Assembly (NCBI GenBank): GCA_036930585.1
Contig: GCA_036930585.1_3066.1
DNA: 64,000 nt
Source of the DNA: a phage
Strand: one strand, 5' to 3'
Part shown: piece by piece, positions 47,428-48,231 of the stretch
How the letters are laid out: the number at the start of each line of letters is the position of its first letter
Position numbering within the stretch: the first letter of the stretch is position 1
Position numbers and translations under genes: made by a program
The notes under the pieces: generated by a model
What the model saw: the letters and a program-made list of their open reading frames with translations, nothing else
What the model was told of the DNA's origin: nothing
Database searches by the model: none

Positions 47428-48231
47428 TTATATCATTTGAGTATGTAAGCAATTAATTAAAAATATATACTTCATCAGTTCCATTCTTTTCTTTGGAATG
47501 ATATATGTTAAAGACGTATTTTTTATTAAGATGCTTAACATTATATTTTTAGACCATTCTTTAAGAAGAGTGTTTTCCTTTCCGTGATGCTCTAAAACAT
47601 TCGACAGTCCAAATTTTATTCCTCTGTCATTTAAAGAATCTAAAAGATTTAAAAGGTCTTTTTCTTCTTCTTCTGACCAAAATTTATTATAATCAGCAAC
47701 TGTTATAAGATATGGAGGGTCCACATATACAAAATCGCCGTCTAGAATTTTGACATCTTTAAAATGCAATGAACTAAAGATTATTTTATCACAATTTTGT
47801 TTAAAGTGATTAAAGCGTTTTTCACTATTTTTGTTTATAGTTCTTTTTCCAAACGGAGTAGTAAAATTTCCTTTATCGTTTATACGAATCATATTACTAA
47901 ACCCGTGAAAATGAAGAACATAAAGTAAAAGAGGATCTCTAGTTTTATTATAATCTTCACGTAATTTCAAAAACTCTTCTTTTGATGTTTTTGATAGTTT
48001 ATATTGCTTTATTACTTTTAAAACGTCATCCCATGATACATTAATAAGACGCTTATACATTTCAATAATTGGTTCTTGAATATCATTGGCCAATACAGGA
48101 CCATTGACGTTCAAAGACACTGATAAACCTCCACAAAATAAATCCACGAATCTGTCATATTTTGGAAAATGAGGCTTAAGTTCAGGTAATAATGACTGTT
48201 TATTACCTGTATACGCGATAGCTCCTAGCAT
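47428..48231 (-). CDS. dam: DNA adenine methyltransferase Dam, C-terminal region frameshifted
   Basis: N6-MTase motifs (DPPY); after ...LLKEWSK the frame changes at an A5 run (47546..47550); the -1 frame encodes [29 protein letters not shown] ending at 47453. Confidence 0.8.

Follow-up and report, generated by a model that had tools for sequence, protein, structure and literature searches.

A one-nucleotide deletion in dam of a Tequatrovirus phage probably inactivates its DNA adenine methyltransferase

The dam gene of the phage analysed here ends in residues unrelated to those of T2 Dam, and the change of sequence falls at a short run of adenines. Does this end reflect a fault of sequencing, a form of recoding, an altered but working methyltransferase, or a mutation that has disrupted the gene? 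The window, by which we mean the whole 64,000-nt stretch of phage DNA analysed, comes from a Tequatrovirus (T4/T2-like). Its closest deposited genomes are ~96-97% identical over 25 kb, and the same phage is absent among them. The dam ORF as sequenced occupies positions 47428..48231 on the minus strand and comprises 267 codons plus a stop. The ORF list and the scores against Pfam PF02086 and TIGR00571 mark it as a T2-type DNA adenine methyltransferase gene with a frameshift.

The lesion is located in an A5 run on the coding strand (minus; T5 on the plus strand) at 47546..47550, within the context ...GAA TGG TCT AAA AAT ATA ATG..., where every relative examined has A6. The part of the ORF preceding the frame change (47548..48231, minus) encodes residues 1-228, which are 100% identical to T2 Dam and include motif I (DLFCGG) and motif IV (DPPY). 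Past residue 228, translation of the ORF continues into an aberrant 39-codon tail (47431..47547, minus) that ends at a stop codon at 47428-47430, replacing the last 31 residues of Dam with 39 unrelated, fairly hydrophobic ones. The native C-terminus persists out of frame at 47453..47545 (minus), where the other frame after the run encodes 30 residues, Y230-N259, bearing the L[ND]KxY and TxE[VI]xxxN motifs and closed by a TAA stop at 47453..47455. Adding one A to the run yields a 259-aa protein that equals T2 Dam (DMA_BPT2) at every residue. Chance could not have produced 31 identical residues out of frame, so the frameshift is real relative to T2 Dam. Comparison of the window with the dam region of phage U115 over 861 nt reveals a one-base gap as the sole difference. 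The preliminary description of this locus had placed the end of the alternative frame at 47453 and had predicted that one extra A would give the 259-aa Dam length, and both points hold. It had also counted 40 unrelated residues after the sequence ending in LLKEWSK; an unrelated tail does follow residue 228, with a length of 39. What it called an apparent -1 frameshift is a one-base loss against the relatives, that is, a 1-nt deletion and not a ribosomal -1 frameshift.

The surrounding genes follow the T4 order 61, dam.1, dam and 56, and, as in T4, dam is not preceded by a nuclease-like ORF. The gp61 primase gene (48540..49571, minus) leads the leftward order on the minus strand, the small gene dam.1 lies at 48343..48543 on the plus strand, and the downstream neighbour of dam in the ORF list is gene 56 (46877..47392, minus), which encodes the 171-aa dCTPase gp56. 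The next gene leftward of gene 56 on the minus strand is soc; between these two the window lacks segF, a homing endonuclease gene of T4. The new dam stop lies 25 nt farther downstream than the native one, in the dam-56 spacer, and 35 nt short of the gene 56 start. Gene 56 is intact, and with the new stop in this position an effect of the dam frameshift on gene 56 or oriA seems unlikely.

Judged by its sequence, the window gene is dam by descent, of the T2 type, and is not an intact Dam. Its residues 1-228 are the same as those of T2 Dam (259 aa; GenBank M22342, BBC14646.1), as is the out-of-frame remainder once the A is restored, and the T2-type residues P20, D26 and E188 are present. The difference from T2 Dam is the run itself, A5 and not A6, with its consequence of a 267-aa product carrying a foreign 39-residue tail. 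T4 Dam (P04392; PDB 1Q0S, 1Q0T, 1YF3, 1YFJ and 1YFL) differs from the window protein by three substitutions in residues 1-228; the window has the T2-type substitutions, and the sequence of the solved structures aligns convincingly with it only to residue 228.

The A5 allele itself was not previously present in the collections searched. With a 121-nt query at the site, the best 30 phage records all span 122 nt, with a top identity of 99.2%, so the exact 121-mer occurs in none of these 30 records. A 45-mer centred on the A5 run, with no more than 20 nt flanking the run at either end so that megablast can seed only in an A5 sequence, gave zero matches among 50,697 phage records. An A5 28-mer was absent from IMG/VR, from JGI metagenome contigs and from GTDB genome contigs; its A6 form occurs three times in IMG/VR. 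At the protein level, the cluster of the window Dam holds 119 members, and among the 40 that were read only a copy from the Logan assembly of SRR28171614 is 267 aa long.

The first 228 residues retain the N-terminal motifs of the family. The window protein matches PF02086 at 171.7 bits (cut-off 22) and TIGR00571 at 216.6 bits (cut-off 114.85), the latter over profile positions 1-240 of 267; the wild type scores 234.8 bits against TIGR00571 and covers positions 1-267 of 267. Motif I (FxGxG; D30, F32, G34) and motif IV (D171-P-P-Y174), both invariant in the alignment, are present, and the DNA-recognition region lies within the N-terminal 228 residues and is intact. These features, together with scores far above both family thresholds and the retention of 228 of 259 residues, are what speaks for a protein that has kept methyltransferase activity, perhaps with altered properties, and has a new C-terminus. 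We regard such an enzyme as improbable, and the replaced segment speaks against it. Homologues found by tblastn at 29-63% identity, in unrelated phages that infect Klebsiella, Cronobacter, Lactococcus, Erwinia, Dickeya and Vibrio, align through residue 259; conservation of the segment thus reaches the last residue, and of seven such homologues fetched, five have annotated proteins that stop 1-3 residues past the aligned C-terminus. In the alignment of eight intact sequences, L-[ND]-K-x-Y is conserved at positions 234-238, and T252, E254 and N259 are invariant within T-x-E-[VI]-x-x-x-N. The window protein has neither C-terminal motif, save a coincidental N at position 259, and by both TIGR00571 and the alignment it lacks the complete Dam domain that includes them. 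Among the sequences examined, the new tail recurs only in the Logan copy, which stems from the same sequencing run. Homologues sharing the C-terminus of the current frame, which the preliminary description had named as grounds for refutation, were found neither among the sequences examined nor in the collections searched.

Going by the class-I methyltransferase fold, the replaced C-terminal segment would supply the two final strands of the sheet in the catalytic domain. Since the C-terminal motifs are conserved down to ~30% identity in Dam homologues, the frameshifted protein is most likely misfolded or inactive. AlphaFold2 run without alignments returned poor models for both proteins, with a pLDDT of 43.3 for T2 Dam and 38.6 for the frameshifted protein.

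Whether the missing base is missing from the DNA or only from its reading is the point on which the interpretation turns. In the latter case the phage would truly carry A6 and an intact 259-aa Dam, one A having been dropped in base calling. A single-base length change in a homopolymer is a classic site of such errors, the A5 allele is confined to one sample, and the collections searched hold no copy of it. Against these points stands a Logan assembly that starts from the raw reads of SRR28171614. Its 12,075-nt contig SRR28171614_299 encodes exactly the 267-aa product, and the comparison with the window, which covered the first 3,000 nt of this ~12-kb contig, gave 100% identity to positions 46766..49765, A5 included. 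This k-mer assembly is continuous across the A5 site, with no break in the 12-kb contig. The exact primase sequence of the window was found only in the same run, so the Logan contig represents the phage of the window and was probably built from the reads behind the window's genome. A separate assembler thus reaches A5 from the reads, which excludes an assembly or polishing artefact and leaves a platform-specific miscall at the site as the form that an error could take.

The remainder of the window also argues against a miscall. Among 180 homopolymer runs of at least 5 nt that are comparable with U115, length differs in the dam run alone, the other 179 being equal, and a run of five bases is short for a systematic miscall. 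No isolated frameshift was found in any other conserved gene of the 64-kb window; isolated indels of a length not divisible by three, relative to U115 and ES21, all lie in spacers or at ORF edges, just upstream of starts. The preliminary description had left the choice between error and genuine mutation open, and had named A6 in the raw reads as the outcome that would speak for error. The independent read-based assembly gives A5. The evidence favours the mutation: an assembly or polishing error is unlikely, and base-calling error, kept as the main rival, is in our judgement an unlikely account of the site. That the deletion is genuinely in the sequenced DNA we hold to be quite likely.

A real deletion could in principle be bypassed if ribosomes shifted by -1, or RNA polymerase slipped, at the A-run and some full-length Dam were thereby restored, at a reduced level. 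The frame change does fall at an A-run, and A-runs can slip. The zero-frame context, however, is U_AAA_AAU (UCU AAA AAU), where the U that precedes AAA breaks the X_XXY_YYZ heptamer pattern, and shuffled sequences fold as well as the downstream 96 nt do (MFE -11.8 kcal/mol, z = -1.14). Efficient slippage of RNA polymerase needs roughly nine A's, and five is well below that number. In the relatives examined, Dam is read in one 259-aa frame containing A6, so the two-frame layout is not conserved, and the A5 two-frame context was found in none of the phage records of the 50,697-record collection. The heptamer, the folding, the run length and the relatives together lead us to reject programmed frameshifting or transcriptional slippage at this run, and even low-level restoration of Dam in this way strikes us as very improbable.

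The reading that we prefer is a real 1-nt deletion that inactivates a dispensable dam, and to this chain as a whole we assign a probability of about 0.68. The deletion would probably have arisen by replication slippage in the homopolymer, A6 becoming A5 within dam. Translation would proceed normally to residue 228 and then shift frame, so that the last 31 residues of Dam would be exchanged for the 39 unrelated ones up to the stop in the dam-56 spacer. The product would be misfolded or inactive, and the phage would no longer methylate its own GATC sites. Such a loss would be tolerated, and would presumably be neutral, given that T-even phages can do without dam; for the same reason a null allele in such a phage is unremarkable.

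Mutants of T2 and T4 without dam are viable. The classical ones, from the Hattman laboratory, reportedly grow without phage-directed GATC methylation; they were selected in the laboratory, whereas the window allele comes from an environmental-type isolate. A 2025 review (PMC12707154) credits T4 Dam with GATC methylation and a block of restriction in vitro and describes its function in vivo as unclear. Two truncated or altered products of the same protein cluster, annotated in deposited T4 genomes, suggest that viable, sequenced phages can carry 3' dam lesions like that of the window, although these are different mutations and are in T4 itself. One (QZB89676.1, 62 aa) ends in EWSKK at the same A-run as the window lesion. 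The other (UJD20246.1, 179 aa) ends in CLHTQMI at the downstream stop that the window allele also uses, which it appears to reach through the loss of 4 nt at its own stop codon. Towards its 3' end, dam may be liable to indels, or else to errors of sequencing.

Frameshifts that inactivate dispensable phage genes are familiar and ordinary events, and this one calls for no new mechanism. Annotation should flag the gene as dam with a frameshift or disruption and not as a 267-aa methyltransferase. If the mutation is real, the isolate is a T-even phage naturally null for dam; it could help in studying the in vivo role of phage Dam and may be relevant to host defences that recognise or spare G6mATC. 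Past annotation and strain characterisation, the allele has little significance.

The region upstream of dam offers a further, more speculative view of why the gene might decay. Most dam-bearing Tequatrovirus genomes (~155 records, including T2 and U115) have an ORF of 181-186 aa directly upstream of dam (U115_031, L001 970-1530; T2_032, L018 1407-1952), which in U115 overlaps the dam start. This ORF carries a PD-(D/E)xK-like motif, FDIVI...IIEIK, and has weak matches to two models, that of the DpnII restriction endonuclease in Pfam (E = 0.0045, below the cut-off) and the type II REase model REase_II in PADLOC (E = 9e-5). DpnII cleaves unmethylated GATC. The window, like T4, retains only about the last 28 codons of the ORF (~48232-48318, minus; a 25-aa ORF at 48231..48308). 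One could picture dam and the putative nuclease as a compact pair of the GATC type, acting in restriction-modification or addiction, in which dam supplies the methylase. Loss of the nuclease in T4 and in the window phage would then have freed dam to decay, the frameshift being a step of that decay and not a random lesion. The missing putative partner fits a Dam that is expendable once the nuclease is gone, and this is far from proof; we rate the scenario as a long shot, and the ordinary deletion in a dispensable gene continues to be the preferred reading.

Several observations concern the sequence around the locus and the genomes used for comparison. Gene 56 (window 46863-47300) is locally divergent from U115 and ES21, at ~92% identity with many compensated indels, between flanks of 97-99%; this divergent patch suggests a mosaic exchange adjoining dam. 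An exact-sequence look-up of the gene 56 product returned zero records. Segments of the window align twice, in both orientations, to the record of phage ES21 (MN508617.1, flagged UNVERIFIED), which appears to hold large inverted duplications and to be unreliable as a comparator. Upstream of the primase gene, a T6 run at window position 49601, compared with T5 in U115, lies within a small gene 61.1-like ORF (49574..49738, minus). Owing to this one-base change in homopolymer length, the ORF is 54 aa long in the window and in T4 and is annotated as 62 aa in U115; at this run the window matches T4, not U115. The U115 record names the ORF 'putative major capsid protein', an odd label for it.
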